Of a DNA stretch of 48,888 nt, positions 1,791-33,400 are shown piece by piece. Every line of letters begins with the position of its first letter. The stretch's first letter is position 1. The position numbers were made by a program, and so were the translations under genes. Location of the stretch: assembly GCA_964650645.1 (NCBI GenBank), contig CAZYUH010000001.1, positions 705,202-754,089 of the forward strand, given 5' to 3'. The notes beneath the pieces were generated by a model, which saw nothing but the letters and a program-made list of their open reading frames with translations, was not told the DNA's origin and searched no databases. The stretch comes from an uncultured Candidatus Saccharibacteria bacterium (GTDB lineage Bacteria; Patescibacteriota; Minisyncoccia; Phycocordibacterales; SBAW01).

Positions 1791-1930
1791 ATGTTTCTAT
1801 GCCCTGTTACAAACGCTGGTAAATGATTATTAACACTTCAAAGCATATACACCCCCTTTACGTTGTCAAACGAACCTGAAGAAAAAGTGTATCTCGCAGG
1901 ACTTCCGGATCCGGGCTTATACTTAAGGCC

Positions 1931-2731: not shown

Positions 2732-2756
2732 TACGATACGACGTGCCGGAAGAAAA

Positions 2757-2777
2757 AATCCCCCGTACAGGGGGATT
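2757..2777. terminator. Hairpin between convergent genes (putative bidirectional terminator)
   Basis: AATCCCCC-GTACA-GGGGGATT preceded by an A-run, between stops at 2731 and 2787. Confidence 0.5.
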
Positions 2778-2786
2778 CTTTGCGCG

Positions 2787-3212: not shown

Positions 3213-3214
3213 AA

Positions 3215-3781
3215 TTAGTTGAAGGTTACGGTTTCAAGTATAGCCCGCAGATCGGCGCGCGTCCGGTCGTTCGCCTGCAGCCATCCGGCCGCGAACACGT
3301 ACACCTTGCCGTTCGCCGCCACCGCCACCGCGTCATTCTCGTAAAGTCCGCTGTACGTATAGGCGAGCGCCGGCTTGCCGCCCACGGTTGCCTGCTTTAC
3401 GCGCTGGTCGGAAAGGGCGAAATTGGCTTTCGACTCAGTCCGCAGGAACTGCTCGAGCGGCAGGCTCTCGGCGTTGCTAAAGCTCGATACGGTTATGCCC
3501 GGCGGGCCTTCGCCGCCCCGCGGCAATTCGTGGTCGCGAGGCATGAGCGCCGTCGTATGCCACACCTCCCCGCCCACAGCCTCGGTGCGCGCGGACAGCT
3601 CGTACGCATCCGGGTACTTGAACGAGTAGCCTTCGCCCGAGGAGTAGCTCAGCATACGGTCATCCTGGGGCGCGCCCGTGACCATGCCGCCAATCCAGCT
3701 GAAATCATACCCGGAAAAGTACAAGTAGCCCCCAGCGGCGAGCGCGAGGACTAGCACCCCCGAAAACAGCGCGTTGCGCAT
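3215..3781 (-). CDS. Membrane-anchored hypothetical protein (PsbP-like fold possible)
   Basis: Start reassigned to MRNALFSGV (TACACT 8 nt upstream); N-terminal TM then YSFKYPDAY and TVGGKPALAY patterns. Confidence 0.6.
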   Translation of the reverse strand: MRNALFSGVLVLALAAGGYLYFSGYDFSWIGGMVTGAPQDDRMLSYSSGEGYSFKYPDAYELSARTEAVGGEVWHTTALMPRDHELPRGGEGPPGITVSSFSNAESLPLEQFLRTESKANFALSDQRVKQATVGGKPALAYTYSGLYENDAVAVAANGKVYVFAAGWLQANDRTRADLRAILETVTFN

Positions 3782-3785
3782 ATGC

Positions 3786-4208
3786 TTATAGTGTACCATC
3801 GGGCCGGGCGTCCTCGCGCCCGCGCACCTGGTCTTCGTCGTAGCCCATGTAGTGCGCGACCTCGTGCCACACGGTTTCGCGCACGGCGCGGCGCATCGCC
3901 TCCTCTTCAGAAAGGCCGCATTCCACGGCCAGGTGCCGCGCCTCCTCTTCAAGCGGCCCTTGGTAGAGGGTTATCGTGTCGGGCAGGGTGTTGCCCACGC
4001 CGTAGTAGCCGCCGCGCGCAGTGTGCGGTATGCCCTGGTAGAGCCCCAGCAGGGTCTCCTGCGGCAGGAGGCCCTCGCGCTCGCGCACCTGCGCGCTCGG
4101 CTCCCATTCGGCCAGGAACGCGACATTGCGCAGGAGATGGTGGAACTTCTCCGGCACCGCCTTGGGGAATTCCTCCGCTATCAGTTTTCCGAACTCTTCA
4201 CGGGTCAT
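3786..4208 (-). CDS. Zincin-like metallopeptidase family protein
   Basis: LLGLYQGIP, PDTITLYQGP and ETVWHEVAHYMG (HExxH). Confidence 0.8.
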   Translation of the reverse strand: MTREEFGKLIAEEFPKAVPEKFHHLLRNVAFLAEWEPSAQVREREGLLPQETLLGLYQGIPHTARGGYYGVGNTLPDTITLYQGPLEEEARHLAVECGLSEEEAMRRAVRETVWHEVAHYMGYDEDQVRGREDARPDGTL

Positions 4209-4750
4209 TTGAGGAGGGGTTTGAACTTGGCCCGCACCTTATCGACCTTGGGCGCTATTACGAGCTGGCAGTACCCCGCGCCCTTGTTGTTCTCGTAGTA
4301 CTTCTGGTGGTAGTCCTCGGCCTTGTAGAACTCCTGCAGGGGCTCTACGGACGTCACGACCTTCCTCTCGCCCGTATACGCCAGCAGGTTGAGGTTGCGT
4401 ATGTAGTGCTCGGTCATCTCCTTCTGCCTCTGCGTCGTATAGAACACCGACGAGCGGTACTGCGGGCCGATGTCGCTCCCCTGACCGTCTACCTGGGTCG
4501 GGTCGTGGCTGCCGAAGTACACCTGGAGGAGCTCGGGGAACGAAATGGCGTCGGGGTCGTACTCGATTTTTGCCGATTCGACGTAGGGCGTCGTGCCGGT
4601 CGATACTTCCTCGTAGCTCGGGCCCTTCGCGGTCTTGTACGCCGGCCCGGCGTAGCCCGGCTCGACCGACTGCACGCCCTTTATCATCAAAAACACCGCC
4701 TCCGTGCACCAGAAGCACCCGCTGCCGAAGACTATCGTTTCGCGTCCCAT
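4205..4750 (-). CDS. msrA: Peptide methionine sulfoxide reductase MsrA
   Basis: GCFWCTE active site, HDPTQ, QYRSSVF, FYKAEDYHQKYY. Confidence 0.95.
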   Translation of the reverse strand: MGRETIVFGSGCFWCTEAVFLMIKGVQSVEPGYAGPAYKTAKGPSYEEVSTGTTPYVESAKIEYDPDAISFPELLQVYFGSHDPTQVDGQGSDIGPQYRSSVFYTTQRQKEMTEHYIRNLNLLAYTGERKVVTSVEPLQEFYKAEDYHQKYYENNKGAGYCQLVIAPKVDKVRAKFKPLLK

Positions 4751-4759
4751 ACCGCCATA

Positions 4760-5917
4760 TTACTTCAAATACCTCTTTCCCTTTAATTTGTCGGGCAGGT
4801 ACGGCTCCTTGTCGTAGAGCTTGTAGCCCTTGTGGTAGCCGAGCGCCTTCATGAGCTTCGTGGGCGCGTTGCGCACCTTAAGCGGGACAGGCAGGCTCCC
4901 GTGCCTCTTCACGTCCTCTAGAGCCGCAAAGTACGCGTCGTAGCTCGCGCGGCTCTTCTTCGATTCCGACAAGTACGCGACGCCGTGCGCCAGGCTTATG
5001 GCGCACTCGGGGTAGCCGATTTTCGAGCACGCATCGAACACCGCATTGGCGACCACCAGCGCCGTCGGCTGCGCGAGCCCCACGTCTTCCGAGGCGAATA
5101 TGACCATGCGCCGCGCGATGAACAGCGGGTCTTCGCCGGCCTCTACCATGCGCGCCAGGTAGTACAGAGCCGCGTCGCCCTGCGAAGCGCGCATGGACTT
5201 TATGAATGCGCTCACGGTGTCGTAGTGCCCCTCGCCCTTCTTGTCGTAGCGCAGGTGCGCCGACTGGACAGTGTCCTTGAGCGCCTCCACATCGAGCCTG
5301 CCGTAGAGCCGGTGCGCGTTCTCAAGCGCGGTTATAGCTTGGCGCGCGTCACCCTGCGCCATGCGTACCAGCCACTCCCGCGCGCTTTTAGGCAGCTTCG
5401 CTTTCAGCTCCTTGGCGGCGCGTTCGCAAATGCCGCCGACATCCCCGTCCGACAGCTCCTGCAAGGCGAACACGCGCGCCCTGCTTAAAAGCGCCGACAC
5501 GACCTCGAAGCTAGGGTTCTCCGTCGTCGCGCCAACGAGCGTAATGTCGCCGCGCTCGACAAACGGCAGGAGGAAGTCCTGCTGGGCCTTGTTAAAGCGG
5601 TGTATCTCGTCGATGAAGAGCACTTTTGGCGCACCGAGCCCGAGCGTGGGGCCCCGCCGGCTCTCTCCCAACACGCTCTTTATGTCATCCTTGCCCGAAT
5701 CGACCGCCGACAGCTCGTGGAACTCCGCCCCCACCGCGGCGGCGTACATGCGCGCCAGCGTCGTCTTGCCGCTCCCCGGCGGGCCCCATAGCAGGAAGGA
5801 GAAGAGCTCCCCTTTTTCCATCGCGACGCGCAGGGGCTTTCCCTCGCCCACCAAATGCTCCTGCCCCGCGAATTCATCGAGCGATTTCGGGCGTATCCTG
5901 CTTGCGAGCGGTTCCAT
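4760..5917 (-). CDS. rarA: Replication-associated recombination protein A (RarA/MgsA AAA+ ATPase)
   Basis: MEPLASRIRP, GPPGSGKTT, FIDEIHRFNKAQQD, GATTENPSF, SEDVGLA, YDKKGEGHYD. Confidence 0.95.
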   Translation of the reverse strand: MEPLASRIRPKSLDEFAGQEHLVGEGKPLRVAMEKGELFSFLLWGPPGSGKTTLARMYAAAVGAEFHELSAVDSGKDDIKSVLGESRRGPTLGLGAPKVLFIDEIHRFNKAQQDFLLPFVERGDITLVGATTENPSFEVVSALLSRARVFALQELSDGDVGGICERAAKELKAKLPKSAREWLVRMAQGDARQAITALENAHRLYGRLDVEALKDTVQSAHLRYDKKGEGHYDTVSAFIKSMRASQGDAALYYLARMVEAGEDPLFIARRMVIFASEDVGLAQPTALVVANAVFDACSKIGYPECAISLAHGVAYLSESKKSRASYDAYFAALEDVKRHGSLPVPLKVRNAPTKLMKALGYHKGYKLYDKEPYLPDKLKGKRYLK

Positions 5918-6005
5918 TTAATCAGTCTACCCTTTTAAGGGATGCGCGGTACACAAGTACGCGCGCGCCGGAAGGCCCCGTAACGGGGCCTTCCGGCGCG
6001 CATTC

Positions 6006-6317
6006 CTAGTGCATGTCGCTGTCGCGCTCGTCGGCGTCGCGGCTCATGCGCCCGCCGCCGTGGCTGTTCTGCCCTCCCTTCTGCCCCGCCGCCACCGCCT
6101 TCTCGCGGTTGTTGGCGAAGTTGCCGGGATTGTTCTCCTTGCCCTGCGACTGCCCGCCCTTGCTGGCGATGGCGCGCCGCTTCTCCTCGCTCATGCCCGC
6201 GAACCCGCGGCGGCTGCGGCTGGGCATCTCAACGCTTTTCGCGTCGCCCGCCGTATCAAGCGCGTCGCGCTCCGGGTCGAACTGCGGCTGCTCGTAGTCG
6301 TCGTATCGTTGCGTCAT
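6006..6317 (-). CDS. KGG-repeat stress-induced protein (GsiB/YciG-like)
   Basis: RRGFAGMSEEKRRAIASKGGQ and NFANNREKAVAAGQKGGQNSHGGG; start taken at MTQRYDD. Confidence 0.85.
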   Translation of the reverse strand: MTQRYDDYEQPQFDPERDALDTAGDAKSVEMPSRSRRGFAGMSEEKRRAIASKGGQSQGKENNPGNFANNREKAVAAGQKGGQNSHGGGRMSRDADERDSDMH

Positions 6318-6416
6318 ACGGGTGTCGATTAACGCCGGTAATCGCACACCGCCAGTCTAGCCGGTACCGCCTGAACTCCGGGTTAAGCGCCGCAAAGCGG
6401 CAAAGGGGCGGCGCGC

Positions 6417-8090
6417 CTACGCGCTCGGGCTTCCCGGAAGGTCGAGCTTGGAGAGCGCCTGCGAGTACGTGAGCCCCACCTTCTTCCCCGGATTGAATAT
6501 ATCGTGCGGGTCGAATATCTTCTTCACCTCGAGGAAGAGCGCGTACATGTCGCTCCCGAACATCTTCTCGACGTAGGGCGTGCGCACCAGGCCGTCGTTG
6601 TGCTCGCCCGAAATGGAGCCGCCATACTCGAGCACGAGGCCGTACACCGCGCGGCTCAGCTCGTCTATCACGCGGCCTATGCCCGGGTCCTTGGGGTCTA
6701 TGAGCGGGATGATGTGGAAATTGCCGTCGCCCACGTGGCCGGCGACGGTGTAGGTGAGCTCCGGGTACCGCGCCATTGCGGCCTGGAGCTTGGGCAGGAA
6801 CTCGGGCAATACGGCGGGCGGCACCACGAAGTCGTCTATGAAGGGCGCCGTGCGCTTGCCGCGGATCTTCTTGCGCAGGAGGTTGAAGCTCTCGCGGCGC
6901 ACGGCCCAGTACTTGCGCGCCTTCTCCTCCGTTTCCGCGATGCGCACGCCGACCCGGCTCTTGCCCTGCGCGATTCTCGCCGCGAGCGCGCGGGCGCGCT
7001 CCAGCGCCTCTTCCTGCGTATCGCCGCGGAATTCTGCCAACAGGACGAGCTTGGGGACGCCCCCCGTGAGCGCCATCCACATCTCCGGCAGGAACGACAG
7101 TCCGATGCCTATAAGCCCGGTCTTCATCTGCGCGGCGAGCTCGGGCAGGTACTTTACGGCGATGGAGAAGGTGTGGTCGTCGTAGCTCTCGAAGCTGTCG
7201 GGGCAAAAGCCGAGCACTTCCGGCACCAGCTCGCCCAGCTGGGAAAGGTCGTTGACGAACATGACCGCCATGGACGAGAACCTCTTGGGGCGCACGAGCC
7301 CGACCTTGATGCGGGTGACGATGCCGAGCGTGCCCTGCGAGCCGACCATGAGGCGCGCCAGGTCAAGCGAGCTCCTGCCGTCGCCGATGTCCCACAGCGC
7401 GTAGCCTGACGAGTTCTTCTCGACGCGCGGCTTGTGCGCCTCGATGATTTTCGCGTACGCGGGAGTGGAGACGAGCTGGGCCACCTTCCGGTAGATATCG
7501 CCCTCGAACCCGGGCTCTTGGAGCTTCTGCGCCAGCTCGCCGCCTTCGAGCTTCCTGAGCGCATGCTCCCGGCCGTCGGCGAGCACGACGCCGAGCTCCT
7601 GCACGTAGCGCGCGGTCTTGCCGTACTTGAGGTTCTTCTCGCCGCCCGAGTTGTTGCCCACCATGCCGCCCACGGTGTTGAGCTCGCGGCTGGCGGTGTA
7701 GCTCGGCAATTCCAGTCCCTTCTTCTTCGTCTCGCGGTCGAAGTCGCGGAAGAACATGCCCGGCTCGACGACCGCGTACGCATCGCCAAGCTCGATGAGC
7801 CTTCCCAGGTGCGCGGTGGTGTCCAGGATGATGGAGGTGTTGAGCGGCCCGCCCGACATGTCGGTGCCCGCGGCGCGCGCCGTTATGGACAAATCGAGCT
7901 TGTGGTTGGCGGCCTTCTTCGCGGCGACAAAGGACACGAGCGCGCAGACGTCCTGCGCGTCCGCGGGGCGCACCACCGCCTGCGGCACGACCCGAAACAG
8001 GCTCGCGTCGCGCGAGTACGCGTCGAGGCTCGCGGCGTCGTCGAGCACTTCCCCGCGCACGGCCTTCCTCAGTTCCTCGGCAAGCGGCAT
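6417..8090 (-). CDS. FAD-binding oxidoreductase (GlcD/D-lactate dehydrogenase family, no Fe-S domain)
   Basis: ARAAGTDMSG, VVEPG, GSQGTLGIVT, GHVGDGNFH, GSISGEHNDG, IFNPGK. Start placed at MPLAEE because TGC-TACCAT lies 7 nt upstream. Confidence 0.9.
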   Translation of the reverse strand: MPLAEELRKAVRGEVLDDAASLDAYSRDASLFRVVPQAVVRPADAQDVCALVSFVAAKKAANHKLDLSITARAAGTDMSGGPLNTSIILDTTAHLGRLIELGDAYAVVEPGMFFRDFDRETKKKGLELPSYTASRELNTVGGMVGNNSGGEKNLKYGKTARYVQELGVVLADGREHALRKLEGGELAQKLQEPGFEGDIYRKVAQLVSTPAYAKIIEAHKPRVEKNSSGYALWDIGDGRSSLDLARLMVGSQGTLGIVTRIKVGLVRPKRFSSMAVMFVNDLSQLGELVPEVLGFCPDSFESYDDHTFSIAVKYLPELAAQMKTGLIGIGLSFLPEMWMALTGGVPKLVLLAEFRGDTQEEALERARALAARIAQGKSRVGVRIAETEEKARKYWAVRRESFNLLRKKIRGKRTAPFIDDFVVPPAVLPEFLPKLQAAMARYPELTYTVAGHVGDGNFHIIPLIDPKDPGIGRVIDELSRAVYGLVLEYGGSISGEHNDGLVRTPYVEKMFGSDMYALFLEVKKIFDPHDIFNPGKKVGLTYSQALSKLDLPGSPSA

Positions 8091-21584: not shown

Positions 21585-21626
21585 AGACGATTCAAGAAAT
21601 TTCAGCAAATGACGCTAGGCCGCAAT

Positions 21627-21773
21627 GACGATATTGCAGTCAAGGAAATAGATATACGAAATTACGCTAAGTATTTATTACGAGAAGGAACAGATCTAGA
21701 AAAGCGAGAATTGCTTGGATGTTTGAAAGGTAATATTTTGTTATCTGAAAAAAAGATTCTATTAACAAAATAA
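21627..21773 (+). pseudogene. Probable 3' remnant of a large serine recombinase
   Basis: DDIAVKEIDIRNYAKYLLREGTDLEKRELLGCLKGNILLSEKKILLTK resembles, from recall, C-termini of Patescibacteria recombinase-family proteins. No own start; GC drops here; terminator follows. Confidence 0.5.
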
Positions 21774-21800
21774 AAACCACTCGACTGAGTGGTTTTTATT
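21769..21800. terminator. Bidirectional intrinsic terminator
   Basis: AATAAAAACCACTC-GACT-GAGTGGTTTTTATT, perfect 14-bp stem. Confidence 0.8.
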
Positions 21801-21836
21801 TCATATTCCTATGTTACTTATATCGCGAACTTAATG

Positions 21837-23363
21837 TTAGTAACTCATAAACTCCGTCACTTCACCATCATTACCGATTGCATAGATGATCCATTTCTCT
21901 GTCTTTGGTCCTGGCATTCCTGGAGAACCTGAAGGCATTCCAGGCAAGGCGATACCTTTGATGGCTGGTTTTTCTGCGAGCAACTTTTCTATTACCTCCA
22001 GTGGTATGTGCCCCTCAACTACATAGCCTCCAACTATAGAAGTGTGGCAGCTCTGTAGATTAGTTGGAACGCCGTACTGATCTTTGATAGCAGTAAGGTC
22101 TTCAACGTCTATAGCCTTTACTTTTACATCTTCACGTTCAAGGTACTCCACATAAACGTGACAGCAACCACACGTTTTTGTTTTATATACCGTCATCTCC
22201 TCACCCATAAGGGCAGTCTTCTCTTCGGAAACGCTTTGACCTTTCCAGATGCTTATACCATTCGGCTTACTGCCTACCGATATTTGAGTTATTTCCTTAC
22301 CTGTTTTTGTATCGACTACAGAGACAGTATTTCCTTCGAGGTTTGTGACATATGCCTTGCTATTATCGTCATTAATAACGACTCCGTGAGGGGCTTTCCC
22401 AACAGCAATGCTTTCAGTTATTTCTTTCGTTTTAAGATCCAGTTTGTACAGCTTGTTGTTTGCAGGTCGGTTCTGTAGAACCCCTTGATCTGCAATATAG
22501 ACGTAACGAGAATCTGAAGTCGGATAGAGTTGCACTGGTCCCTCTGAACCCTCTGGCAATGCTACATACGATACTGATTCGAGAGCAGTATCGTACAGAG
22601 CAACGCTGCGAGTCTCATACACAGACGCAGCTACATATTTACCATCAGGAGTAACCGCTGTCTGGACAACCGAACCGTTGAGAATTTTTACTTCTGTCGT
22701 TCCACTTGCGAGATCGACGACACCAAGACCCTTCCCGTCCATAAAGGCAACATAGGCAGTTTTTCCATCAGGAGAGAGTCGCATACCATGGGGACCGCTT
22801 CCTTCGGGTAGACTAATCTCTGTTTGTAGGAAATTGCTCGTATCTACTTTGTAGAGCTTATTTGTCTCCTGCGCCGCGATAAGTGCTATAGATCCGTCTG
22901 GGGTAAACACGACATGCGCCAGATGCTGACCACTTCCAAGCGGTATTCGTTTGACTATGGCGTCCTCTTGAGGGTCAATGACGATAACCTGATCCCCAGT
23001 GTCCATCTTCATTTCCTCATGTCCCTCATCGGCATATGCGGTAGGAATGAAAAGTGAAGTATGTACGTCATGCTCCTCCATTCCAGCATTAGCTGTTACC
23101 CAAACACTTTTTCCGTCGGGGGACGCCTGGACATTGTGCGGAAGATATTTCGTCTCAGTTTCTTGCTCAGTAAGATCAATGACTTTGATTGATTTGTTTG
23201 TGGCAGGGTCAATCACATTCACAGTGCCTTCTTCTTCGACTGCCACATAGATTTTCTCTGTAAGTGCATTTCCTGTTGAGGAAATGGGGTTATTCTTTGC
23301 AAGCAACGTAATGCCTACAAGTGCAAGGATTACAATCCCGCCTAATAGATATGCTTTCTTCAT
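21837..23363 (-). CDS. YVTN/YncE beta-propeller fused to a C-terminal DUF411 (CopG-like) domain
   Basis: Blades PHNVQASPDG, AHVVFTPDG, PHGMRLSPDG, APHGVVIN; C-terminal TCGCC, SCHTSIVGGYVVEGH, GIALPGMPSGSPGM. Confidence 0.85.
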   Translation of the reverse strand: MKKAYLLGGIVILALVGITLLAKNNPISSTGNALTEKIYVAVEEEGTVNVIDPATNKSIKVIDLTEQETETKYLPHNVQASPDGKSVWVTANAGMEEHDVHTSLFIPTAYADEGHEEMKMDTGDQVIVIDPQEDAIVKRIPLGSGQHLAHVVFTPDGSIALIAAQETNKLYKVDTSNFLQTEISLPEGSGPHGMRLSPDGKTAYVAFMDGKGLGVVDLASGTTEVKILNGSVVQTAVTPDGKYVAASVYETRSVALYDTALESVSYVALPEGSEGPVQLYPTSDSRYVYIADQGVLQNRPANNKLYKLDLKTKEITESIAVGKAPHGVVINDDNSKAYVTNLEGNTVSVVDTKTGKEITQISVGSKPNGISIWKGQSVSEEKTALMGEEMTVYKTKTCGCCHVYVEYLEREDVKVKAIDVEDLTAIKDQYGVPTNLQSCHTSIVGGYVVEGHIPLEVIEKLLAEKPAIKGIALPGMPSGSPGMPGPKTEKWIIYAIGNDGEVTEFMSY

Positions 23364-23367
23364 AGGC

Positions 23368-23763
23368 TTAATTGTTGAACCACGTTTGTCGCCATTCTCT
23401 CATCATTTCAATTTCACTTGTCTGTGCGTTAATAATGTCATTTCCAAGTTTTACGAGTTCAGGGCGCTTAGTCTTTTGAAGAAGCATCTCTGCCATATCT
23501 ACAGCTCCTTCGTGGTGAACAATCATCTCGTCAATAAATGCCTTCTCAAATTCTTCTCCTGATTTACCTTCTAAACCTGCTGTCATATTAGTCATTGTGT
23601 TTCCCATTTCGTGTGAGTTACCCATCATATGACTGCTTGTGTCGGTTATACCTGACATCATTGGGTAATCCATTTTTCCTGTTCCTAAGAAATATCCAAG
23701 AACAAGTCCCAGAATGAGGGTAATGATGCCGATAATAAGTAGATGTATATTTTTTGTTTCCAT
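23368..23763 (-). CDS. DUF305 ferritin-like (CopM-like) protein
   Basis: Met/His-rich linker; FIDEMIVHHEGAVDMA...IINAQTSEIEMM. Confidence 0.88.
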   Translation of the reverse strand: METKNIHLLIIGIITLILGLVLGYFLGTGKMDYPMMSGITDTSSHMMGNSHEMGNTMTNMTAGLEGKSGEEFEKAFIDEMIVHHEGAVDMAEMLLQKTKRPELVKLGNDIINAQTSEIEMMREWRQTWFNN

Positions 23764-23803
23764 AATTTTGTTTAATAGTTGCTAATAAAAGAAGTAGGAA
23801 AAA

Positions 23804-24211
23804 TTACGGGGCTTTGGGATGCAAAATACCTTGAGAGAATAGCTCTGTATATAAATCGGGAATATGGAACGTGAACCTGCGAGGTAATTCTTGAGAGTTG
23901 GATATTTTGGGCGGATCCAGTATGTCCTTTTTTATATACGTGTGGAGGGCAAGTCCAAGAGCTATAAGTAAAAGCAAGTAGGAAGCGATGAGTGTTAGAG
24001 GAACACTGAACATGCTTTGCCATACAGAAAGGTACTCAAACGGGTTCATTGCACAAATGACATGCTCTCCAAGCGTTATGGTGCATCCAGCTTGGTGTTC
24101 ACCGTGCGACATTTGAACCGCCGACAAAATGCCAAACCCACCTACCCATACAAATGCCACTAAGAGTATGCCGAGGAGGAGATATTTTGCTTTGTTAGTA
24201 AAAAATGACAT
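23804..24211 (-). CDS. Hypothetical membrane protein in the copper operon
   Basis: Two TM segments, MSHGEHQAGC...HVIC motif, C-terminal ELFSQGILHPK; 2-nt gap to copB. Confidence 0.7.
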   Translation of the reverse strand: MSFFTNKAKYLLLGILLVAFVWVGGFGILSAVQMSHGEHQAGCTITLGEHVICAMNPFEYLSVWQSMFSVPLTLIASYLLLLIALGLALHTYIKKDILDPPKISNSQELPRRFTFHIPDLYTELFSQGILHPKAP

Positions 24212-24213
24212 AC

Positions 24214-26259
24214 TTACATTCTATAATTTTTCAGGAGGGTTGCGTTAATCGCCACGACCACCGTACTTACTGACATCAGTACGGCTCCTACGGCAGGAGA
24301 TAAAACAATTCCGACACCAGCGAGTACTCCCGCTGCCAGTGGCAGGGCAAGAATGTTATAACCGCTTGCCCACCAGAGATTTTGGATCATCTTTCGATAG
24401 GTAGCTTTGGCAAGAGAAAGAATTACAACCACATCTCTTGGGTCGCTTTTTACCAAGACCACATCAGCGCTTTCTATAGCCACATCGGTTCCAGCGCCGA
24501 TAGCGATGCCAACATTGGCCTGTGCAAGAGCTGGTGCGTCATTGACCCCGTCTCCGACCATCGCCACCTTATACCCTTGAGCTTGGATTTCTTTTATTTT
24601 CTCTGTCTTCTCGTGTGGCAATACCTCTGCGTAATAGGTTTTGATACCGAGCTCCTTTGAAACACGTTCTGCAACACGCTTTGCGTCCCCGGTAAGCATA
24701 ATGGGTTCAATTCCCATTGCTTGAAGTTTTTGGACCACCTCCTTTGCTTCATCGCGAACCAAATCATCAAGAGCAATAGCACCTATAGGTAATTCGTTAA
24801 CCAAAACGAACACGACAGTCCGTCCCTCATCAATCAAACGTTCAACATTTTTGTTGTTTACCGTTATGCTCTTTCCATTCAAATACCCTGGACTTACGAC
24901 TTTGATTTGTTTTCCTTCTACAGTGCCCATTGCACCTTTACCTGGTATTGAGGAGAAGTTATTTACAGCAAGCTTTTTGCTTACCCGTTCTGCTATAGCT
25001 TTGGCTATCGGATGTTCGGAGTGTGCCTCTATTGCGGCAGCATAGGCAAGGATTCGATCCTCCTGTTCATTTCCCAAGGGCACAACTTCGGTTATACCGA
25101 ACTTTCCTTTAGTAAGAGTGCCTGTCTTATCAAAGACAACAGCTGTTATATTCCGTGCTTCTTCAAAAGCGGTTCTGTTGCGTATAAGCAAGCCTTTGCG
25201 AGCAGAAAGAGCTGTTGAAACCGAAACCACAAGCGGTATAGCAAGACCGAGTGCGTGAGGACAAGCTATGACAATAACAGCAATGGTTCGCTGAAGGGCA
25301 TACGCGAGATTTTCTGACGTAAAAAATGTCCAACCAAAGAATGTAAGTATCCCTGCGCCTATCGCAACAAACGTTAGCCACATCGCTGCACGATCAGCGA
25401 GTTTCTGGGTCTTTGACTTTTCTGCCTGTGCTGATGACACAAGCTCTATAATTTGCGAAAGATATGTGTCTTTTCCTACTTTCTGTATCTCTACTACGAT
25501 TGAGCCATCACTGTTTACAGAGCCTCCAATAACGGATTGTCCAGCAAACTTTTCTATGAGCTTGGTTTCTCCTGTAAGCATTGCTTCATTTACAGAAGTT
25601 CTTCCTTCAACAACAATGCCGTCAACTGGAATCTTCTCACCAGGCTTTACAAGAACTCTATCTCCGAGGGACAGATCGGCAACCTGAACATCTTCTGTCT
25701 CTCCGTCTTTTCCTAGCCGATGTGCTGTTGAAGGCATTAGCTTTGCTAGCTCTTCCAAAGCCCGAGATGCACCCATGACCGACCGCATTTCGATCCAGTG
25801 CCCAAGAAGCATAATGTCCACGAGCGTTACCAGCTCCCACAAAAGCTCCTCGCCGGGCAGGCCCGCAAACACAGCAATGCTATATCCATAAGCGGCAGAA
25901 ATAGCCAAGGCGACGAGCGTCATCATCCCCGGCTGTCTTGCTTTTACTTCATCATATAAACCTTTGAGAAAAGGATAGCCCCCATAAAAGAAAATGATTG
26001 AGGCGAGAATAAACCGAACATATACATCTCCTGAAAAGCCGATACCCTCTATACCAAAAAACATCTGGACCATCGGCGAGAGAACAAGTACAGGAATGGA
26101 GAGAATTAGAGAAATCCAAAACTTCTTTCTGAAATCCTCAACCATATGGGCGTGATGACCTTGATGGTTGTCGTGTGAATGTTTCTCTTGGTGGCTACTG
26201 TCCGTATCAGAGCAAGAGTGATCAGCAGGAGAATGTTTGTGATGAGAAGTATCGTGCAT
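24214..26259 (-). CDS. copB: Copper-translocating P1B-type ATPase, His-rich N-terminus (CopB-like)
   Basis: His-rich N-tail, CPH, DKTGTLT, TGE-type actuator motif (MLTGE), GDGVNDAPAL, YNILA, MSVSTVVVAINA. Confidence 0.92.
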   Translation of the reverse strand: MHDTSHHKHSPADHSCSDTDSSHQEKHSHDNHQGHHAHMVEDFRKKFWISLILSIPVLVLSPMVQMFFGIEGIGFSGDVYVRFILASIIFFYGGYPFLKGLYDEVKARQPGMMTLVALAISAAYGYSIAVFAGLPGEELLWELVTLVDIMLLGHWIEMRSVMGASRALEELAKLMPSTAHRLGKDGETEDVQVADLSLGDRVLVKPGEKIPVDGIVVEGRTSVNEAMLTGETKLIEKFAGQSVIGGSVNSDGSIVVEIQKVGKDTYLSQIIELVSSAQAEKSKTQKLADRAAMWLTFVAIGAGILTFFGWTFFTSENLAYALQRTIAVIVIACPHALGLAIPLVVSVSTALSARKGLLIRNRTAFEEARNITAVVFDKTGTLTKGKFGITEVVPLGNEQEDRILAYAAAIEAHSEHPIAKAIAERVSKKLAVNNFSSIPGKGAMGTVEGKQIKVVSPGYLNGKSITVNNKNVERLIDEGRTVVFVLVNELPIGAIALDDLVRDEAKEVVQKLQAMGIEPIMLTGDAKRVAERVSKELGIKTYYAEVLPHEKTEKIKEIQAQGYKVAMVGDGVNDAPALAQANVGIAIGAGTDVAIESADVVLVKSDPRDVVVILSLAKATYRKMIQNLWWASGYNILALPLAAGVLAGVGIVLSPAVGAVLMSVSTVVVAINATLLKNYRM

Positions 26260-26263
26260 ATAG

Positions 26264-26533
26264 TTATTTGCTTTGGGCTAACTTATATACCTTAAGAATT
26301 TCATTGATTGCTTTCCCTTCTTCTTTGCCTCGCATTTGATGCACAACATGCGTAGATAAGTGATGTTCCAGCATCACATTTTCTACGCTTCCCAATGCCT
26401 TTTTGATGGCATTGGATTGAGTGATGATATCTACACAATATTTCTCGCTTTCCACCATTTGCTGTAAACCACGCACCTGACCCTCGATGCGGCGCAGACG
26501 ATTTTGCAACTGCTTTTTTATGTCTTGCTTCAT
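26264..26533 (-). CDS. csoR: CsoR/RcnR family metal-sensing repressor
   Basis: RLRRIEGQVRGLQQMV, YCVDIITQ, MLEHHLSTHV; a CsoR-type operator sits directly upstream. Confidence 0.88.
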   Translation of the reverse strand: MKQDIKKQLQNRLRRIEGQVRGLQQMVESEKYCVDIITQSNAIKKALGSVENVMLEHHLSTHVVHQMRGKEEGKAINEILKVYKLAQSK

Positions 26534-26539
26534 ATCTTA

Positions 26540-26567
26540 AGTATACCCCTGTGGGGTATACGGTCAA
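26540..26567 (-). promoter_or_regulatory. Sigma70-type promoter overlapped by a CsoR-type operator
   Basis: Perfect palindrome GTATACCCC-TGT-GGGGTATAC (26541-26561); minus strand TTGACC-N16-TATACT-N6-ATG. Confidence 0.85.
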
Positions 26568-26728
26568 GCTCAGTTTCGTTAGTTGATACTGTACCTTATT
26601 CATTCTCCTCCACAGGAACGTGTAAAAGCAAAAAGCGCCCAAACCAGGCACTTTTTACCTATAAAAACCTTCCTTAGTTAATATAAGGCTATCGACGCGT
26701 CTCGTGCGCGATAACCTATCACGAGTTG

Positions 26729-26743
26729 GCTGGGAGACATGGA
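26729..26743. repeat. att core, distal copy of the tRNA-Gln 3' end
   Basis: Identical to 31418-31432; on the minus strand it continues ...TCTCCCAG-CCA. Confidence 0.85.
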
Positions 26744-26880
26744 ACCTCACTGCTCGCTTCGCTGCGCTTACGAAACCCTCGGTTTCGTAGACTTCCGACA
26801 CGGGGAACTCCCATTCCCCGACCCCCTCCCGGTTCAAATCCATGCCGCGGGCAACCCCGTTGCCCGCTTCTCCCAGCTTC
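26744..26880 (-). other. tRNA-linked palindromic module with a split antisense copy of the tRNA-Gln 3' end
   Basis: GCTGGGAGA-A-[GCGGGCAAC GGG GTTGCCCGC]-GG-CATGGATTTGAACC, followed by further hairpins (GGGGAA/TTCCCC, TACGAAACC/GGTTTCGTA). Confidence 0.7.
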
Positions 26881-26924
26881 AGCGCTTCGTATTCTAGCTG
26901 GGTGTATGGGACGATGTTGGAACC

Positions 26925-27431
26925 TTACTTTGTGCTTAAGCCCATTACCCGAGAGTAGTATGGCAAAATCTCTTGGGCTAGAGGCGCAAGATTTACTTTA
27001 TCAGCAGATTCAGCAAAAAGTTGGAATATAGGCCACAACTCTTGGGTTAGAGTTTTTACATCCCAAACTTTACTTTTTGGAGTACCGCTTTGTCTTGAAG
27101 TGGTAAGATGACCAACTTCCTTATCAGCCCGGGTCTTTGCCTCTGTCAAAACTTCACTTAATTGCGGCCTTACTTTATCCCAGGAGTCTTCCTTGTTAAA
27201 GAAGTCTTTCGCACATACGTCAGTGTCTCTAGAAGAGGCTGGATATAGGAAAGTAATCAGATTCCGCAAGTGTATTGCGTAAGATTCAACAGGCATATGT
27301 TGCAATCCGTTAGGAACTTTAAGCCCACGAATTATTGCATCAGTACCATTGAGTAACATTTGAACCTCATACCGTACATGTTCAGAAAAGTACTCGACAA
27401 GTTGTTTTTCCGTTAGGTCTTTTGTTTTCAT
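26925..27431 (-). CDS. Hypothetical protein, HEPN-like
   Basis: ESYAIHLRNLITFL and RADKEVGH (R-x6-H); all-helical appearance. Confidence 0.6.
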   Translation of the reverse strand: MKTKDLTEKQLVEYFSEHVRYEVQMLLNGTDAIIRGLKVPNGLQHMPVESYAIHLRNLITFLYPASSRDTDVCAKDFFNKEDSWDKVRPQLSEVLTEAKTRADKEVGHLTTSRQSGTPKSKVWDVKTLTQELWPIFQLFAESADKVNLAPLAQEILPYYSRVMGLSTK

Positions 27432-27781
27432 TGCTGAAGCGTAAAATTAAGACATCCGCAACCAGATTTGCATGGTATTTCCTTATTAAAGACAGGGATA
27501 CTTTGTCCTGGTTCAATCTTAGAAAATCCTTCTTTGTGCATAAACTTGGAGTGACCACACTGGCATTGTTGTTTCAAGGACTCTAAGTATTCATCTTGCA
27601 CAGATACATCTATCTCAACTATCTTTTCATTGTTCTCGCACACTTCGTTTACACATTGAAACTTTCTTTTACCGTCAAACTTTTGAGAAGGCTCTCCTTC
27701 AAGTTTTCGCATAGCAAAAGGGCCAATTTCTCTCATTACCTCATGGCAAACTTCGCAGGGCATTTCTTTCATAAATTTCAA
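27428..27781 (-). CDS. Double zinc-finger-like small protein
   Basis: CEVC...CVNEVC and CQCGH...H...CKSGCGC; ATGA-coupled to the next gene. Confidence 0.7.
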   Translation of the reverse strand: MKFMKEMPCEVCHEVMREIGPFAMRKLEGEPSQKFDGKRKFQCVNEVCENNEKIVEIDVSVQDEYLESLKQQCQCGHSKFMHKEGFSKIEPGQSIPVFNKEIPCKSGCGCLNFTLQQ

Positions 27782-27786
27782 TAACT

Positions 27787-29019
27787 TTAGGTTAACTTTT
27801 CGAATTTACTCGAGAGACTCTTTAGGTTATCTAGCAACTCGTCAAATGTAATAAACTCTATATTCTTGAACGACCTACGCAACAATCTAAAGTCTCTCTT
27901 TTTGTTATCGTTACTCTCCCACTCTTGAGTCTTCCCTATTATTAAAAAGGCTTTTGGCTTGAGAACTGAGAATGGAACCTTAGTTTGCTTTTGTAGGTAC
28001 TTTTCGAATCCCTCAACATTTTTTTCAAGAAAGAGAATGTATTTTTCAATCTGAGAAATTGCCTGCGAAGAGCTTCTTGAAAGGAAATAGTTATCATGAC
28101 TGGTGTCTATCCTTCTCGCAAAAATTTCAGTGAATGGTGTCTTTATTTCAAACACATCCAGGAATCCATATAAATCTATCCAGACAAAATCTGGTTTTTT
28201 AGCACCTTCTTCCGTTTTGGCGAAATTAACATCTGCTTCCCTTATCGACTCAATGTAATTTGAGTTAAAGAAGAAGACTTCCTCATGCAGAAACTTTTGC
28301 CACTGTTTTTCCGAGAAGTTTCTGTTTTTGATATGTCTTTCAAACTTCTTTATCACTTGGTCAAGAGTCTTCTTTCTTCCCTCAATGACAAGGTTCTCCT
28401 GCAAATACTCCAGAACTTGGTCATTTTCTGAGTTTATAGAGATGTATCTTTTAATAAAACCAGCGACAGCCTCATGATCGTCTTTATCAAGAGTGTTTAG
28501 GTTAATCTCAGTTAATTTCTTATTTGCACTTTCGTCACTTGATGCACTCTTGAATTCGTTAGGCAAAAAACGAGCAAGACGCTCTTGCACAACAGAATCT
28601 CTTCCTTTTTTTACCTCAGTTCCAAGGTCTTCAAGTAACTCTCTAAAATCTTTAAAAGAGAGACTGAGCGAAACATACTTAGGCTGATTCTTAAAGTAAG
28701 TCGAGCCATGACCACTCATAAATACACTTAGTCTGGTTTCTTTACCAAACTTATTTTTAAGGAAATCCAAAACGTGACTTCCACCAACTTTATTGACCTG
28801 TCTCTGATTAAAACCTCCTCCTGTCTTGTATAAAAATAGTCCTACCGGCTGCTGAGAAAATCCTTTAAAAGTTATTGTCTTTATACTAAACCTTTTAGCT
28901 ACAGACGGTTTGAAGTAGTAAATGAAGTTATCGTCTTGTTTTTTCCAGCCAGCAAGAATCCTCTTAGCCCTCTTTTTGGCTTTCTTTTTTGAGGACTTCT
29001 TTTTCTTCTTGGCTACCAT
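27787..29019 (-). CDS. sduA: Shedu (SduA, DUF4263) anti-phage nuclease
   Basis: EKQWQKFL, KPDFV, VFEIKTP, SQAISQIEKY, KPKAFLIIG, FRLLRRSFKNIEFITFDELL; TATACT 6 nt upstream. Confidence 0.9.
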   Translation of the reverse strand: MVAKKKKKSSKKKAKKRAKRILAGWKKQDDNFIYYFKPSVAKRFSIKTITFKGFSQQPVGLFLYKTGGGFNQRQVNKVGGSHVLDFLKNKFGKETRLSVFMSGHGSTYFKNQPKYVSLSLSFKDFRELLEDLGTEVKKGRDSVVQERLARFLPNEFKSASSDESANKKLTEINLNTLDKDDHEAVAGFIKRYISINSENDQVLEYLQENLVIEGRKKTLDQVIKKFERHIKNRNFSEKQWQKFLHEEVFFFNSNYIESIREADVNFAKTEEGAKKPDFVWIDLYGFLDVFEIKTPFTEIFARRIDTSHDNYFLSRSSSQAISQIEKYILFLEKNVEGFEKYLQKQTKVPFSVLKPKAFLIIGKTQEWESNDNKKRDFRLLRRSFKNIEFITFDELLDNLKSLSSKFEKLT

Positions 29020-29135
29020 GCGGGTAGTATACTCTTGTTCCTGAAAACTTCATCCGCCGGCGCGGGCGGCCATCCGAGGCGCCCTGCGGAGCTTCGTGCC
29101 GCGCCTAGCGGCATGAAGGGGCGGGGCTGCCCGCG

Positions 29136-29357
29136 CTAGCTAAAGGGTCCTTTGCGGATAAGAGTCTCTGCTTCTTTTTCTGCTCCTGGCTTCCGTGTAT
29201 TTTCTTCTATCTTCTCAAGCAAATTTACTATTCGATTTTGTTTCCAGTACCAAGTAAATATCTCTCGAACTAACAAAAAACCAATGAGCCAAAGAAATAG
29301 AATCGGCCAGTTATCAAAGAAGCTAATGATTTGTCGCGGCAATTCTAGGCTGTCCAT
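29136..29357 (-). CDS. Small single-pass membrane protein
   Basis: TM helix then REIFTWYWKQNRIVNLLEKIEEN. Confidence 0.65.
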   Translation of the reverse strand: MDSLELPRQIISFFDNWPILFLWLIGFLLVREIFTWYWKQNRIVNLLEKIEENTRKPGAEKEAETLIRKGPFS

Positions 29358-29389
29358 ATCTTAAAAAGTTACAGATAAAGCCGTGGACG

Positions 29390-29530
29390 CAAAAAGCCCG
29401 CCACGGGTAGAGACCGAAGTCTCTCGTACCAGTTTCCCGATACGGCAGGTAATGCAACCCCATGACGGGTTCTTTATGCATTACCTGACTTGTCGACCTT
29501 ACCTGGGGTTGCCAGGGTTAGGCCCTTTTT
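29390..29530 (-). promoter_or_regulatory. Putative structured RNA leader / attenuator
   Basis: GAAA-loop hairpin (29425-29444), UUCG hairpin (29409-29424), closing stem CCTGCC/GGCGGG plus T-tract, and an 11-bp stem (29446-29456/29477-29487) that overlaps the closing stem. Promoter TTGAAA-N18-TATAGT at 29547-29576. Confidence 0.5.
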
Positions 29531-29719
29531 ATTCAGTTGTGGCCCCACTATACCATCAGTTTTGCCAACATTTCAAAAAGCGTTTCCGAATACAAAAAGT
29601 GCTTGCCGGGGCGGTTTATGAGCGTAAAATTGTTAGTAAGTTCTGGAATAAAAGTCCCGTAAACACGCCTCCTTCGAGGGCAGAGGCAGAACCCACATTA
29701 AAAGCTCGTCTTTTCTTTT

Positions 29720-29932
29720 GTGGTTTATTCTGCCCCTCTAATACAAGAGACTATTTTCGTCTTTCAAGAAGAAAACGGCATACTTCTCACACCCGAGGAG
29801 GCTGTTATTGTTTTGGATGGCCTTTCTGGGTTGTTTTTGGCATATGCAGACCGAGCTGAGGCGACTCCACCCGCTTTAGCGGTGGAGTCGCACTCTATAG
29901 ACTTGATACTCCACACACTTAATGCTACTTAA
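29720..29932 (+). CDS. Small protein directly upstream of the recombinase
   Basis: GTG start; LIQETIFVFQEENGILLTPEEAVIVLDGLSGLFLAY; TTGCCG-N16-TAAAAT promoter at 29603-29630. Confidence 0.55.
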   Translation: MVYSAPLIQETIFVFQEENGILLTPEEAVIVLDGLSGLFLAYADRAEATPPALAVESHSIDLILHTLNAT

Positions 29933-29969
29933 ATTTATTTACTTTTAATTTCAGTGTATTTTAGAGCTT

Positions 29970-31478
29970 ATGAAATACTTCATTTACTGCCGCAAAAGCA
30001 CTGACACGGAGGACCGGCAGGTATTGTCCCTGGACTCGCAGGAAAACGAGCTTAAACGGCTCGCAGAGGCCCAAGGGCTCAAGGTTGCGGGGGTACTTCG
30101 GGAGTCTATGTCGGCTAAGGCTATAGGCCGTCCTGTCTTTACCCAGCTCCTCAAAGCTCTATCCTCTGGTAAAGCCGATGGAATTCTCTGTTGGAAGCTA
30201 GACCGTCTCGCCCGCAACATGGTGGATGGCGGCCAAGTCATGGATTTGCTCCAAAGGGGTGTAATCAAAGAAATTCGCACTTACGAATCAACCCACCTCT
30301 CCTCCGACAATGTCCTCATGCTCGCCGTCCACTTCGGCATGGCAAATCAGTACATCCGCGACCTGAGCATAAATGTTAAGCGTGGACTTAGAGCAAAACT
30401 AGAGCGTGGCGACTGGCCCAACAAACCCCCTCTTGGATATTTCAACGACAAAAACACAAAGCAAATAGTTATAGACCCCATTTCCAGCAGATATGTCGTG
30501 CGCGCATTTGAACTCTACGCAACAGGGAGCTATGGCATAGAAGACTTGGCAGACAAACTGTACGCCGAAGGACTACGGAGCAACCGAGGAGCAAAGATTC
30601 ACAAGTCCACTCTACACAAAGTTCTTCTTCGCTCGTTCTACACAGGGGTCATGGAGCGCGACAATCGCTTTTACAAAGGCAACCATGCTCCCCTCATTTC
30701 AAAGCAACTTTACGATAAGGCCCAAACCGTACTCTCGGGCAATGCACATCCCAAGCCCCAGCGTTTGTTCTTCCCTCTCAGAGGATTCCTGAAATGCGCT
30801 TCCTGTGGCTGTGCGCTTACTGCCTCTCTCAAGAAAGGCCATCAGTATTACTATTGCACCAATGGCAAGGGTAAATGCGACCAGCACAAGAGCTACCTGC
30901 GCGAGAACACCATAAACGCTATGGTGGCTGATTTGTTCGACTCCCTGCACTTCTCTGAGCGCAAGATTGAACTTATGTATAAAGCCGCTAAGGAAAGGTC
31001 AGAGCAGGAGGGCGGCCAAGAAAGACAGAACCTAAACCGCCTCCAGAACCTCTTAAACGCCCTCTCAGAGAAAGAAAGTCGCCTGTTAGATACTTTCGTA
31101 GCCGGTCAGATTCCTAAAGAGCTTTACGACCGCAAGGCGGGCGAAATACAGCATGAACGTCTAGACCTTACCCGCCAGATTCGGGAGGCTGAAAGTAAGG
31201 GAGATGTTTCTACTTTGGAACCGACTAAGCAAGTCTTTTTACAAGCCAGTAAAGCCAAAAAAGAGTTTTTGGATGGCGATGATACTAAAAAGCGCACTAT
31301 CGTAGAAAATCTACTTTGGAACCTTTCTATCGAAAACAAATCCGTGGCTCAAACACAATATAAAAGCCCATTTCACTTACTAGCAAATATCCCTAAAAAC
31401 GCCTCACTTTCAACAATGCTGGGAGACATGGATTCGAACCATGATTCACGCCTCCAAAGGGCGCTGTCCTACCATTAG
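29970..31478 (+). CDS. Large serine recombinase (resolvase + recombinase + Zn-ribbon + coiled coil)
   Basis: YCRKST (catalytic Ser), WKLDRLARN, PPLGY, CASCG...YYYC...C. The last ~20 codons are antisense to tRNA-Gln. Confidence 0.95.
   Translation: MKYFIYCRKSTDTEDRQVLSLDSQENELKRLAEAQGLKVAGVLRESMSAKAIGRPVFTQLLKALSSGKADGILCWKLDRLARNMVDGGQVMDLLQRGVIKEIRTYESTHLSSDNVLMLAVHFGMANQYIRDLSINVKRGLRAKLERGDWPNKPPLGYFNDKNTKQIVIDPISSRYVVRAFELYATGSYGIEDLADKLYAEGLRSNRGAKIHKSTLHKVLLRSFYTGVMERDNRFYKGNHAPLISKQLYDKAQTVLSGNAHPKPQRLFFPLRGFLKCASCGCALTASLKKGHQYYYCTNGKGKCDQHKSYLRENTINAMVADLFDSLHFSERKIELMYKAAKERSEQEGGQERQNLNRLQNLLNALSEKESRLLDTFVAGQIPKELYDRKAGEIQHERLDLTRQIREAESKGDVSTLEPTKQVFLQASKAKKEFLDGDDTKKRTIVENLLWNLSIENKSVAQTQYKSPFHLLANIPKNASLSTMLGDMDSNHDSRLQRALSYH
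31418..31432. repeat. att core, tRNA-proximal copy
   Basis: GCTGGGAGACATGGA inside the tRNA-Gln 3' half and the recombinase 3' end. Confidence 0.85.
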
Positions 31479-31489
31479 ACGATCTCCCA
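31419..31489 (-). tRNA. tRNA-Gln (TTG)
   Basis: TGGGAGA/TCTCCCA acceptor, GCGCC-CT-TTG-GA-GGCGT anticodon arm, GGTTCGAATCC T-arm; CCA not encoded. Confidence 0.95.
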
Positions 31490-33181: not shown

Positions 33182-33190
33182 ACGGACAGT

Positions 33191-33400
33191 ATACCCGAGG
33201 ATAGTGAGCAAAATAAACTTGTTTATTTTAGCGAACGACGCAGGATATATGAGCTCCTGACTCATATACCCGAGGATAGCGAGTAAAAACACACGCTTGC
33301 GTGTGTTTTTCGCGAGCGACGCAGGATATATGTGCTTTTGGCTCATATACCCGAGGATAGTGAGCAAAGAAAAAGCCGGCAGATTCAAGTATCTGCCGGC
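33191..33400. repeat. Tandem 57-bp repeat (2 full copies + 1 partial) separated by unique perfect hairpins
   Basis: 33231-33287 vs 33312-33368 match at 50/57; 22-bp partial copy at 33191; hairpins at 33210-33229, 33285-33310 and 33375-33400. Confidence 0.9.

Follow-up and report, generated by a model that had tools for sequence, protein, structure and literature searches.

The window, which is the whole stretch of 48,888 nucleotides that was analysed, consists of host DNA of about 64% G+C interrupted by a low-GC block that extends from about 21.7 kb to 31.43 kb and is made up of two parts. The left part (21696-26728) is a copper-resistance island with genes for a CsoR-type repressor, a P-type ATPase, a DUF305 protein and a DUF411/beta-propeller protein. 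The right part carries a gene for the Shedu defence nuclease SduA, three small ORFs and a gene for a large serine recombinase (LSR); the island that they form is about 4.5 kb long (26903-31417), a length typical for the LSR family. The cargo gene for SduA (27787..29019, minus strand) was recognised by Pfam SduA_C (E=2e-28) and by PADLOC SduA (E=1.4e-32). Shedu is characterised by an SduA protein with a C-terminal DUF4263 nuclease domain, and such a protein is encoded by the island. The small ORFs on the minus strand encode 168 aa (26925..27431), 117 aa with many cysteine pairs (27428..27781) and 73 aa with a predicted membrane segment (29136..29357), the first two of them being cargo without a family match in Pfam or PADLOC.

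The LSR gene in its integrated form occupies 29970..31478 on the plus strand and encodes 502 aa. The ORF matches the Pfam families Resolvase, Recombinase and Zn_ribbon_recom (PF00239, PF07508 and PF13408), with the PF00239 catalytic domain at residues 4-149 (E=1.8e-22), and the protein is therefore an LSR. In the alignment of 45 homologues the nucleophilic Ser10 is nearly invariant and the zinc-ribbon cysteines are invariant at alignment positions 276, 279, 296 and 303. Residues 47-414 of the window LSR can be aligned to the SPbeta integrase, and the model of the homologue P0003 (AlphaFold2, 45 homologues) has long helices at 330-435 as a candidate coiled coil. Since ARAGORN places a tRNA-Gln(UUG) gene, the integration target, at 31418..31489 on the minus strand, the LSR ORF ends inside the antisense tRNA, which makes up its last 61 nt. 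The C-terminal end of the ORF reads ...STMLGDMDSNHDSRLQRALSYH; residues 1-484 are encoded by the element, while residues 485-502 (GDMDSNHDSRLQRALSYH) are read from the antisense tRNA-Gln. Both the ORF coordinates and ARAGORN thus bear out what the sequence-only reading had proposed, namely that the recombinase runs into an antisense tRNA-Gln. The 3' acceptor strand and the T arm of this tRNA would constitute the B' half-site of the integration reaction.

The two ends of the island can be read as attachment sites. The attR site (31395..31440, plus strand), delimited by comparison of attR and attL across the family loci, has LSR coding sequence as its P arm (...CTTTCAACAAT), the anchor or crossover region GCTGGG at 31418-31423 and the T-loop motif ATTCGAACC at 31432-31440, at an offset of 14 nt; the whole reads ...CAACAAT GCTGGG AGACATGG ATTCGAACC. 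The canonical attL site (26897..26939, plus strand), recognised by motif, anchor, offset and frame, adjoins the end of the first cargo gene and reads ...GTATTCTA GCTGGG TGTATGGGACGAT GTTGGAACC, with the anchor GCTGGG at 26897-26902 and the P' motif GTTGGAACC at 26916-26924. Its offset is 19 nt as against 14 nt in attR, and the P' motif is therefore placed 5 bp further out. The pattern TGGN6RTYSGAAC has a single exact match in the whole window, at 26907-26923. The displaced final codons of the LSR are found at 26898-26939 as L GVWDDVGTLLCA followed by a stop codon, and the LSR frame stays open over GCTGGG, giving ...STML-GVWDDVGTLLCA and an enzyme of 496 aa in the free form compared with 502 aa in the integrated form, so that the residues beyond Leu484 are state-dependent. 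The native tail of the free state, as read across this junction, is probably GVWDDVGTLLCA. The identity between attL and attR of the LSR in the window comprises 6 bp only (GCTGGG). From the sequence alone it had been remarked that tRNA duplications of 15 bp are seen with tyrosine integrases more typically than with serine ones, and this remark is fair.

The relatives of this LSR number in the thousands, mostly in Patescibacteria, and the same architecture is directly observed among them. In 61 of 78 related loci, mostly from Patescibacteria, the LSR ORF ends in or abuts an antisense tRNA, which is tRNA-Gln in 24 loci, tRNA-Ser in 18, tRNA-Trp in six, tRNA-Tyr, tRNA-Leu and tRNA-Lys in three each, tRNA-Asp in two, and tRNA-Arg and tRNA-Val in one each. 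Among the 120 best protein homologues, 76 have tails of the DSN(P/Q) type (e.g., ...DSNPN or ...DSNQD..LQR..SYH), which are translated antisense T loops and anticodon loops of tRNAs, and a minority end in ...(G/A)VW(D/Y)(D/E/N)(V/I)GT followed by 3-13 residues. The tails of integrated forms range from 2-3 aa (tRNA-Lys targets, ...LSAQ stop) up to more than 60 aa. An upstream site sharing the same anchor of about 5 nt with attR and carrying [AG]T[ACT][CG]GAAC was detected in 21 of 56 integrated loci, where the distance from the anchor to this motif (usually GTTGGAACC) exceeds that to the T-loop motif ATTCGAACC in attR by exactly 5 bp; any other offset from 0 to 10 was found in 0-1 loci. The anchors, with variants TGCTG, TGCGG, TGTGC and similar, cover the last acceptor bases, the discriminator and one or two bases beyond the tRNA. 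Exact matches to TGGN6RTYSGAAC in the fetched loci fall on the LSR strand in 55 of 57 cases.

This geometry has a counterpart in characterised enzymes. In serine integrases, the motif for the zinc-ribbon domain occupies positions 16-24 of the half-site in attP and 11-19 in attB (PMC3783163), and the offset of 5 bp seen in the family alignments matches this published attP/attB rule. The LSR family appears, from the site comparisons, to read the universal T loop of tRNAs, with attP matching the variable acceptor and T-stem sequence, and this matching would explain why at least nine tRNA isoacceptor types are targeted by close relatives. The closest integrated relative (L085, protein P0002), whose LSR is 73% identical to that of the window, has only TGCTG in common between attL and attR, and the P' arm of its attL is nearly identical to the attP of the circular relative L001; comparison of these three sites therefore puts the crossover inside the anchor. 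A mirrored T-loop motif was also considered as a family rule for the B arm and was rejected, since only one of 21 attL left arms has it, and these arms are for the most part rich in T or similar to terminators.

Four related plasmids, 4-8 kb in size, were observed as free circles, and their LSRs end in ...VW(D/Y)(D/E)(V/I)GTx-hydrophobic. Circularity follows from a 30-nt terminal overlap in L001 (4218 nt, a circle of 4188 bp) and in L091 (5962 nt), from a 15-nt terminal overlap in L092 (7977 nt), and from L089 and L090 (6551 and 6539 nt) being circular permutations of a single 6521-bp molecule recovered in two runs. A rolling-circle Rep gene adjoins the LSR gene in each circle and is located immediately upstream of it in L001, L089/L090 and L092, and the cargo includes a CBASS-like cyclase in L089/L090 and a BglII-type restriction-modification system in L092. 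tRNA genes were looked for in L001 and in the similar contig L002, and neither yielded one. Since the circular contigs carry the VW..VGT tail, the free form is a small plasmid whose LSR has that tail. The proposal made from the sequence alone that the recombinase C-terminus depends on the integration state is thus upheld by the tRNA-ended loci on the one hand and by the free circles with another, conserved tail on the other, and the comparison supports this dependence as a conserved architecture of the family, not an accident of one locus.

We consider it likely that 26903-31417 is an integrative element with attP across the 3' end of its LSR gene, and that the canonical junction swaps the tail of the enzyme. 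The element, about 4.5 kb with the Shedu gene and the LSR gene, would belong to the large, mostly patescibacterial family described above. Its attP would span the 3' end of the LSR gene, with the coding sequence up to Leu484 as the P arm and the last 12 residues, GVWDDVGTLLCA, encoded in the P' arm, and the partner of this site in recombination by the LSR would be the very 3' terminus of a tRNA gene. The crossover is expected inside GCTG, made up of the final acceptor bases, the discriminator and the base that follows it, and the tRNA T loop (TTCGAACC) would act as the zinc-ribbon-domain motif of the B' half-site, its P' copy being placed 5 bp further out. Because attP would lie across the 3' end of the LSR gene, integration would split the gene, leaving the native tail codons at attL and letting the ORF run 18 codons into the antisense tRNA-Gln. 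The canonical excision junction would be ...CAACAATGCTGGG/TGTATGGGACGATG, with attP predicted as ...CTTTCAACAATGCTGGG/TGTATGGGACGATGTTGGAACC and attB as ...GCTTCGTATTCTAGCTGGG/AGACATGGATTCGAACC. Large serine integrases cleave both strands in concert at a 2-bp crossover and need a directionality factor for excision. Comparing attL, attR and attP of relatives narrows the crossover to GCTG, within which the exact dinucleotide would lie, and excision may still be possible for the copy in the window.

A different junction had been proposed in the sequence-only reading, which relied on a 15-bp copy of the tRNA 3' end. The copy is real: the window contains GCTGGGAGACATGGA at two places only, 26729-26743 and 31418-31432, as a direct repeat for which chance would yield about 0.09 matches of a 15-mer even with 2 mismatches allowed. 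If this repeat were the site of recombination, the element would span 26744-31432, its excised form would encode LGDM plus a 51-aa tail across a junction ...GCTGGGAGACATGGA/ACCTCACTGC, and the end of the copper island would be left joined to the tRNA; we regard this as very improbable. Joining 31432 to 26744 does reproduce LGDM plus 51 aa (EPHCS...RFVF; 538 aa in total), as claimed, and yet the claim that excision would make this joint probably does not hold, because the canonical in-frame attL with its P' arm is situated 168 bp further inward (26897-26939) and the free-state tail that it encodes is GVWDDVGTLLCA, not one of 51 aa. No P'-type motif is present at +5 beyond the 15-bp copy, the nearest GGAACC being 5 bp too close. 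The open frame at 31432/26744 is unremarkable, given a G+C content of about 60% in the joined stretch and another forward frame (ORF 26726..27031) that is open there too.

What the putative 51-aa tail is read from is a tRNA-mimic, palindromic module of 168 bp (26729..26896, plus strand). It begins with the exact antisense copy of the tRNA-Gln 3' end (26729-26743), which is truncated in the T loop, and continues with some 85 nt of different sequence, then a T-loop/T-stem copy in sense orientation, GGTTCAAATCCATG (26831-26844), a GC hairpin of 24 nt (26845-26868), the acceptor strand in sense orientation, TCTCCCAGC (26869-26877), and a spacer of 19 nt, after which the canonical attL starts. The module folds strongly (z ~-3.7) and has no Rfam match; the sole Rfam match in the module and cargo region was a chance SmY. 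The same layout, built from the local tRNA, adjoins the canonical attL in L009 (tRNA-Trp) and L018 (tRNA-Leu). It is possible that such hairpin modules mimicking a tRNA serve as folded or landing-pad att sites tied to the rolling-circle life style.

The distribution of the module and of the repeat bears on the choice of junction. In contigs of X6, from a sister strain and from other organisms, the end of the copper island is continuous with a complete tRNA-Gln with no module between them, as expected if recombination took place in the 15-bp repeat, and the sister strain has neither module nor island beside the same tRNA-Gln, so that the two could have arrived together. Against this, a 222-nt contig of X6 contains the copper-island end, the 15-nt copy, a diverged partial copy of the module of about 105 nt (26745-26848) and then tRNA-Gln, with no island. 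The repeat pair is therefore independent of the LSR element, which lends no support to its being the element's own duplication, as had been supposed, and the 168-bp module is probably not part of that element, to judge from these layouts. The attL-attR identities of 12-20 bp in L016, L023, L031 and L054 also speak for recombination within a longer repeat; they arise because P' also mimics the acceptor and T stem of the target. In the MAG contig L022, the 3' end of the LSR gene is joined directly to the core and a tRNA-mimic module, which favours the repeat junction and could represent either a tandem arrangement or a real alternative junction. On the opposing side, tails read through the module amount to 0 aa in L009, 14 aa in L022 (a real contig), 51 aa in the window and 68 aa in L018, with no similarity to each other, and the canonical tail, with no module, is present in each of the four circular relatives. 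The module tails are thus random in frame and length, an outcome that the sequence-only reading had itself named as one that would count against its proposal, whereas at the canonical junction the frame over the anchor is kept in 24 of 24 P' sites.

We searched for excision by comparing contigs from eight DNA and three metatranscriptome runs with the locus. No excised circle, empty site, or attP or attB joint of the island was present in these assembled contigs, which drop rare variants. In four DNA runs, island and flanks are covered to equal depth, and contigs of the RNA libraries, which lack strand information, cover the locus evenly. The contigs were also searched for other contexts of the element, and it was found only with this one strain. 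A relic of a recombinase C-terminus suspected at 21608-21773 found no confirmation, blastp of a translation in a wrong frame, interrupted by stop codons, showing no similarity. Moreover, no recognisable Rep gene was found in the window element, for which Pfam gave none and tblastn only weak collinear matches (E~1, about 29640-29782), and no recombination directionality factor was identified in it. All this would fit a fixed relic that is no longer mobile, in which case the integrated-form ORF would be the sole form ever made. We consider such a loss of mobility rather unlikely, given that the LSR ORF is intact with conserved domain signatures, that the P' arm is an exact in-frame match to the family motif and that rare excision is invisible in contig data.

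Whether the exchange of tails under the canonical model matters to the enzyme depends on how the conservation of the native tail is explained. In a set of 24 diverse P' sites, TGG (Trp) never varies and, with the columns used for site selection left out, the information content by codon position decreases in the order 2 > 1 > 3. The residue two past GT is hydrophobic in 24 of 24 sites, with an invariant T at the second codon position and variable first and third positions, and this position lies about 30 bp from the centre, beyond the usual 25-bp half-site. These features, together with the frame kept over the anchor in every site, argue for some selection on the native tail peptide, as far as the alignment can tell. 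Tail conservation could, on the other hand, largely reflect the DNA-binding need of the P' arm. The motif GTTGGAAC does not vary even at third codon positions, though the sites had been found by means of those very columns, and P'-type sites are conserved in cassette arrays even though they are not translated as LSR tails there. With a serine recombinase, the family may build such integron-like cassette arrays at tRNA genes.

An alternative to a functional tail is a neutral by-product, in which attP overlaps the gene end for compactness, the tail is a translated T-loop-like half-site and both forms of the enzyme behave alike. It is a real possibility, to which we give somewhat less than an even chance. 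It accords with GTTGGAACC and ATTCGAACC being one DNA motif at positions 5 bp apart, with the conservation of the untranslated array sites and with the tolerance of tails from 2-3 to more than 60 aa, from which it follows that the integrated enzyme accepts nearly any tail. A structural role of the native tail was considered and set aside, as in the P0003 model the tail (485-501) has a pLDDT below 50 and is predicted to be disordered, the confident body ending near residue 483; there is therefore no structural support for a docking role, and the disorder is likewise in line with a by-product. The codon-position signal, the invariant hydrophobic residue outside the expected DNA footprint and the retention of the anchor frame in 24 of 24 sites speak against neutrality. 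We tentatively suggest, again with something short of even confidence, that the native tail W-[DY]-[DEN]-[VI]-G-T-x-hydrophobic may be a working motif of the free enzyme and the tRNA-coded tail a filler. That the swap is a real stability or directionality switch seems doubtful. Native tails end in LLCA, NAAL, TLIF, GTII, KNI or PLD; they are hydrophobic past GT and have no consistent ssrA-like end. The more specific idea of a built-in state sensor, with W-D-[DE]-V-G-T-x-hydrophobic present only on the enzyme made from the free plasmid, we hold to be unlikely. Were it true, the motif would be needed for synapsis of attP with attB or would mark the enzyme for turnover, and the enzyme of the integrated state, whose tail is coded by the tRNA, would be locked or redirected; directionality would therefore be partly written into the recombinase by its own reaction.

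The window LSR and its family share the catalytic, recombinase, zinc-ribbon and coiled-coil parts with known large serine integrases, such as the Listeria A118/LI integrase, SPbeta SprA, Bxb1 and phiC31, as well as short att sites with a motif 5 bp further from the centre in attP. Unlike them, the family targets the 3' ends of many tRNA genes with the universal T loop as the motif, has its attP inside the last codons of the integrase's own gene, has, besides the tail, a C-terminal region of some 65 additional aa, and is carried here by 4-8 kb rolling-circle plasmids or defence islands in Patescibacteria, not by phages. An Islander-type tRNA island, which has a tyrosine integrase and whose far end is marked by a displaced tRNA 3' fragment as a direct repeat, does not fit: a scan of the ten larger ORFs between 21258 and 31478 revealed no tyrosine integrase, and the 15-bp displaced-fragment repeat belongs to the module and is present without the island in X6. 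In the literature, our coverage of which is incomplete, we found no description of this LSR family, of a T-loop att design or of a serine integrase gene that contains an att site.

The nearest precedents are the integration-dependent immunity of mycobacteriophage BPs and the SSV1-type integrases. In BPs and its relatives, attP is located in the 3' part of the repressor gene, the target is a tRNA and the integrase is a tyrosine integrase; the repressor of the free form carries a degradation tag, as was shown experimentally (PMC4557955). The same change of a C-terminus between free and integrated DNA is seen in attL and attR of the window and in the circles, with the difference that here the switched gene would be that of the recombinase itself and the tail would be replaced, not truncated. 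The fusellovirus integrases of the SSV1 type are archaeal tyrosine recombinases with attP in the integrase gene and a tRNA target, and their gene is partitioned on integration by a split that takes away a large part of it, with no intact integrase remaining; in the window LSR the exchange would be confined to the last 12 codons. The Tycheposons of Prochlorococcus are described as small tRNA-targeting elements with replication genes, cargo and tandem arrays, which mostly encode tyrosine recombinases and in a few cases large serine recombinases; the passages of this source that were searched by term contain no att-in-gene design or T-loop motif shift (bioRxiv 10.1101/2020.12.28.424599). They also differ from the window family in host phylum. 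Filamentous phages of the phiRSM type resemble the window LSR in using a serine recombinase and a tRNA 3' end as attB; theirs is a small, resolvase-type enzyme without zinc ribbon or coiled coil, which acts at the 3' end of tRNA-Ser with a 13-bp identity and is not known to swap a gene end.

Serine integrases are prized as simple and directional, and new ones are wanted for genome engineering. If the tail exchange altered activity or stability, control of directionality would reside inside the integrase gene and would work without a separate factor. The mobile elements of Patescibacteria are poorly known, and the family adds to them widespread integrative rolling-circle plasmids of 4-8 kb, whose cargo comprises defence systems such as Shedu, CBASS-like genes and restriction-modification.

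The free circular relatives L001, L089/L090, L091 and L092 are plasmids of 4-8 kb that make up a class of Patescibacteria plasmids replicating by rolling circle and able to integrate. In L001, L089/L090 and L092, the gene for the large serine recombinase (LSR) is immediately preceded by one for Rep (PF23343 or Phage_CRI). The cargo of L089/L090 is a CBASS-like cyclase and that of L092 a BglII-type restriction-modification system, while the cargo of L001 and L091 gave no family match. The island in the window may retain a decayed remnant of such a Rep. With the Rep protein of the similar contig L002 as query, tblastn gave two collinear but weak matches (E about 1) at 29640-29782, just upstream of the LSR gene, the place that Rep occupies in the relatives; this segment had no Pfam support for Rep.

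The attP half-site carrying the displaced T-loop-like motif (P'-type site) occurs repeatedly in some loci, with two to five copies per locus in L011, L017, L026, L084, L009, L034 and L016 and a larger number in L019. In L019, from the Paceibacterota MAG JADGRH010000002.1, 12 copies of the ~30-bp site GCTGGGGGTCTGGTACGATGTTGGAACC are arrayed at 26-6570, all of them on the LSR strand and upstream of the LSR gene, with a spacing of 360-1400 bp and small ORFs of 60-280 aa between them. This arrangement looks like an integron-style cassette array operated by a serine recombinase.

The tRNA-mimic modules, found immediately outside the canonical attL, are likewise recurrent. They span 170-200 bp and repeat the 3' end of the local tRNA in inverted copies, into which a GC hairpin is inserted, and they are located at 26729-26896 in the window and at L009:2042-2235, L018:1181-1365 and L022:2348-2467 in the related loci. 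Sequencing run X6 holds a variant of the module without the island. A GC-rich 32-nt hairpin also interrupts the middle of two P'-type sites in L019 (652-723 and 2000-2057+); it is similar to the 23-24-nt hairpins of the modules. Such sites may be the target of a very small palindromic insertion, represented by this hairpin.

Between the Shedu gene and the 73-aa ORF, the window has a GC-rich (~60%) segment at 29060-29240 that occurs twice in the source genome. The assemblies divide here into two variants of 130/131 nt with approximately equal depth, and the sequences flanking the second copy are on a 4430-nt contig with the depth of the genome. Upstream of the dnaX start near 33180, a unit of 28-62 nt is present in three direct copies spaced 75-81 bp (33190-33373, minus-strand sense), each containing TTGCTCACTATCCTCGGGTATA, which is similar to a -35/-10 promoter pair. 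The mechanically called dnaX ORF is enlarged by these repeats and acquires a repetitive N-terminal extension.

The low-GC copper-resistance island at 21696-26728 encodes CsoR, a CopA-type ATPase, DUF305 and a DUF411/beta-propeller fusion, and has no recombinase of its own. Diverged copies of it in run X6, present at higher depth, directly adjoin a tRNA-Gln in other organisms, so that it appears to be a mobile unit distinct from the LSR island, although located at the same tRNA. A 14-kb contig from runs X1-X4, with the depth of this genome, matches 26691-26733 with three mismatches and then continues from 31465 onward (matched segment 31465-31493), which points to another locus in which this flank is joined to a partial tRNA-Gln-like sequence.
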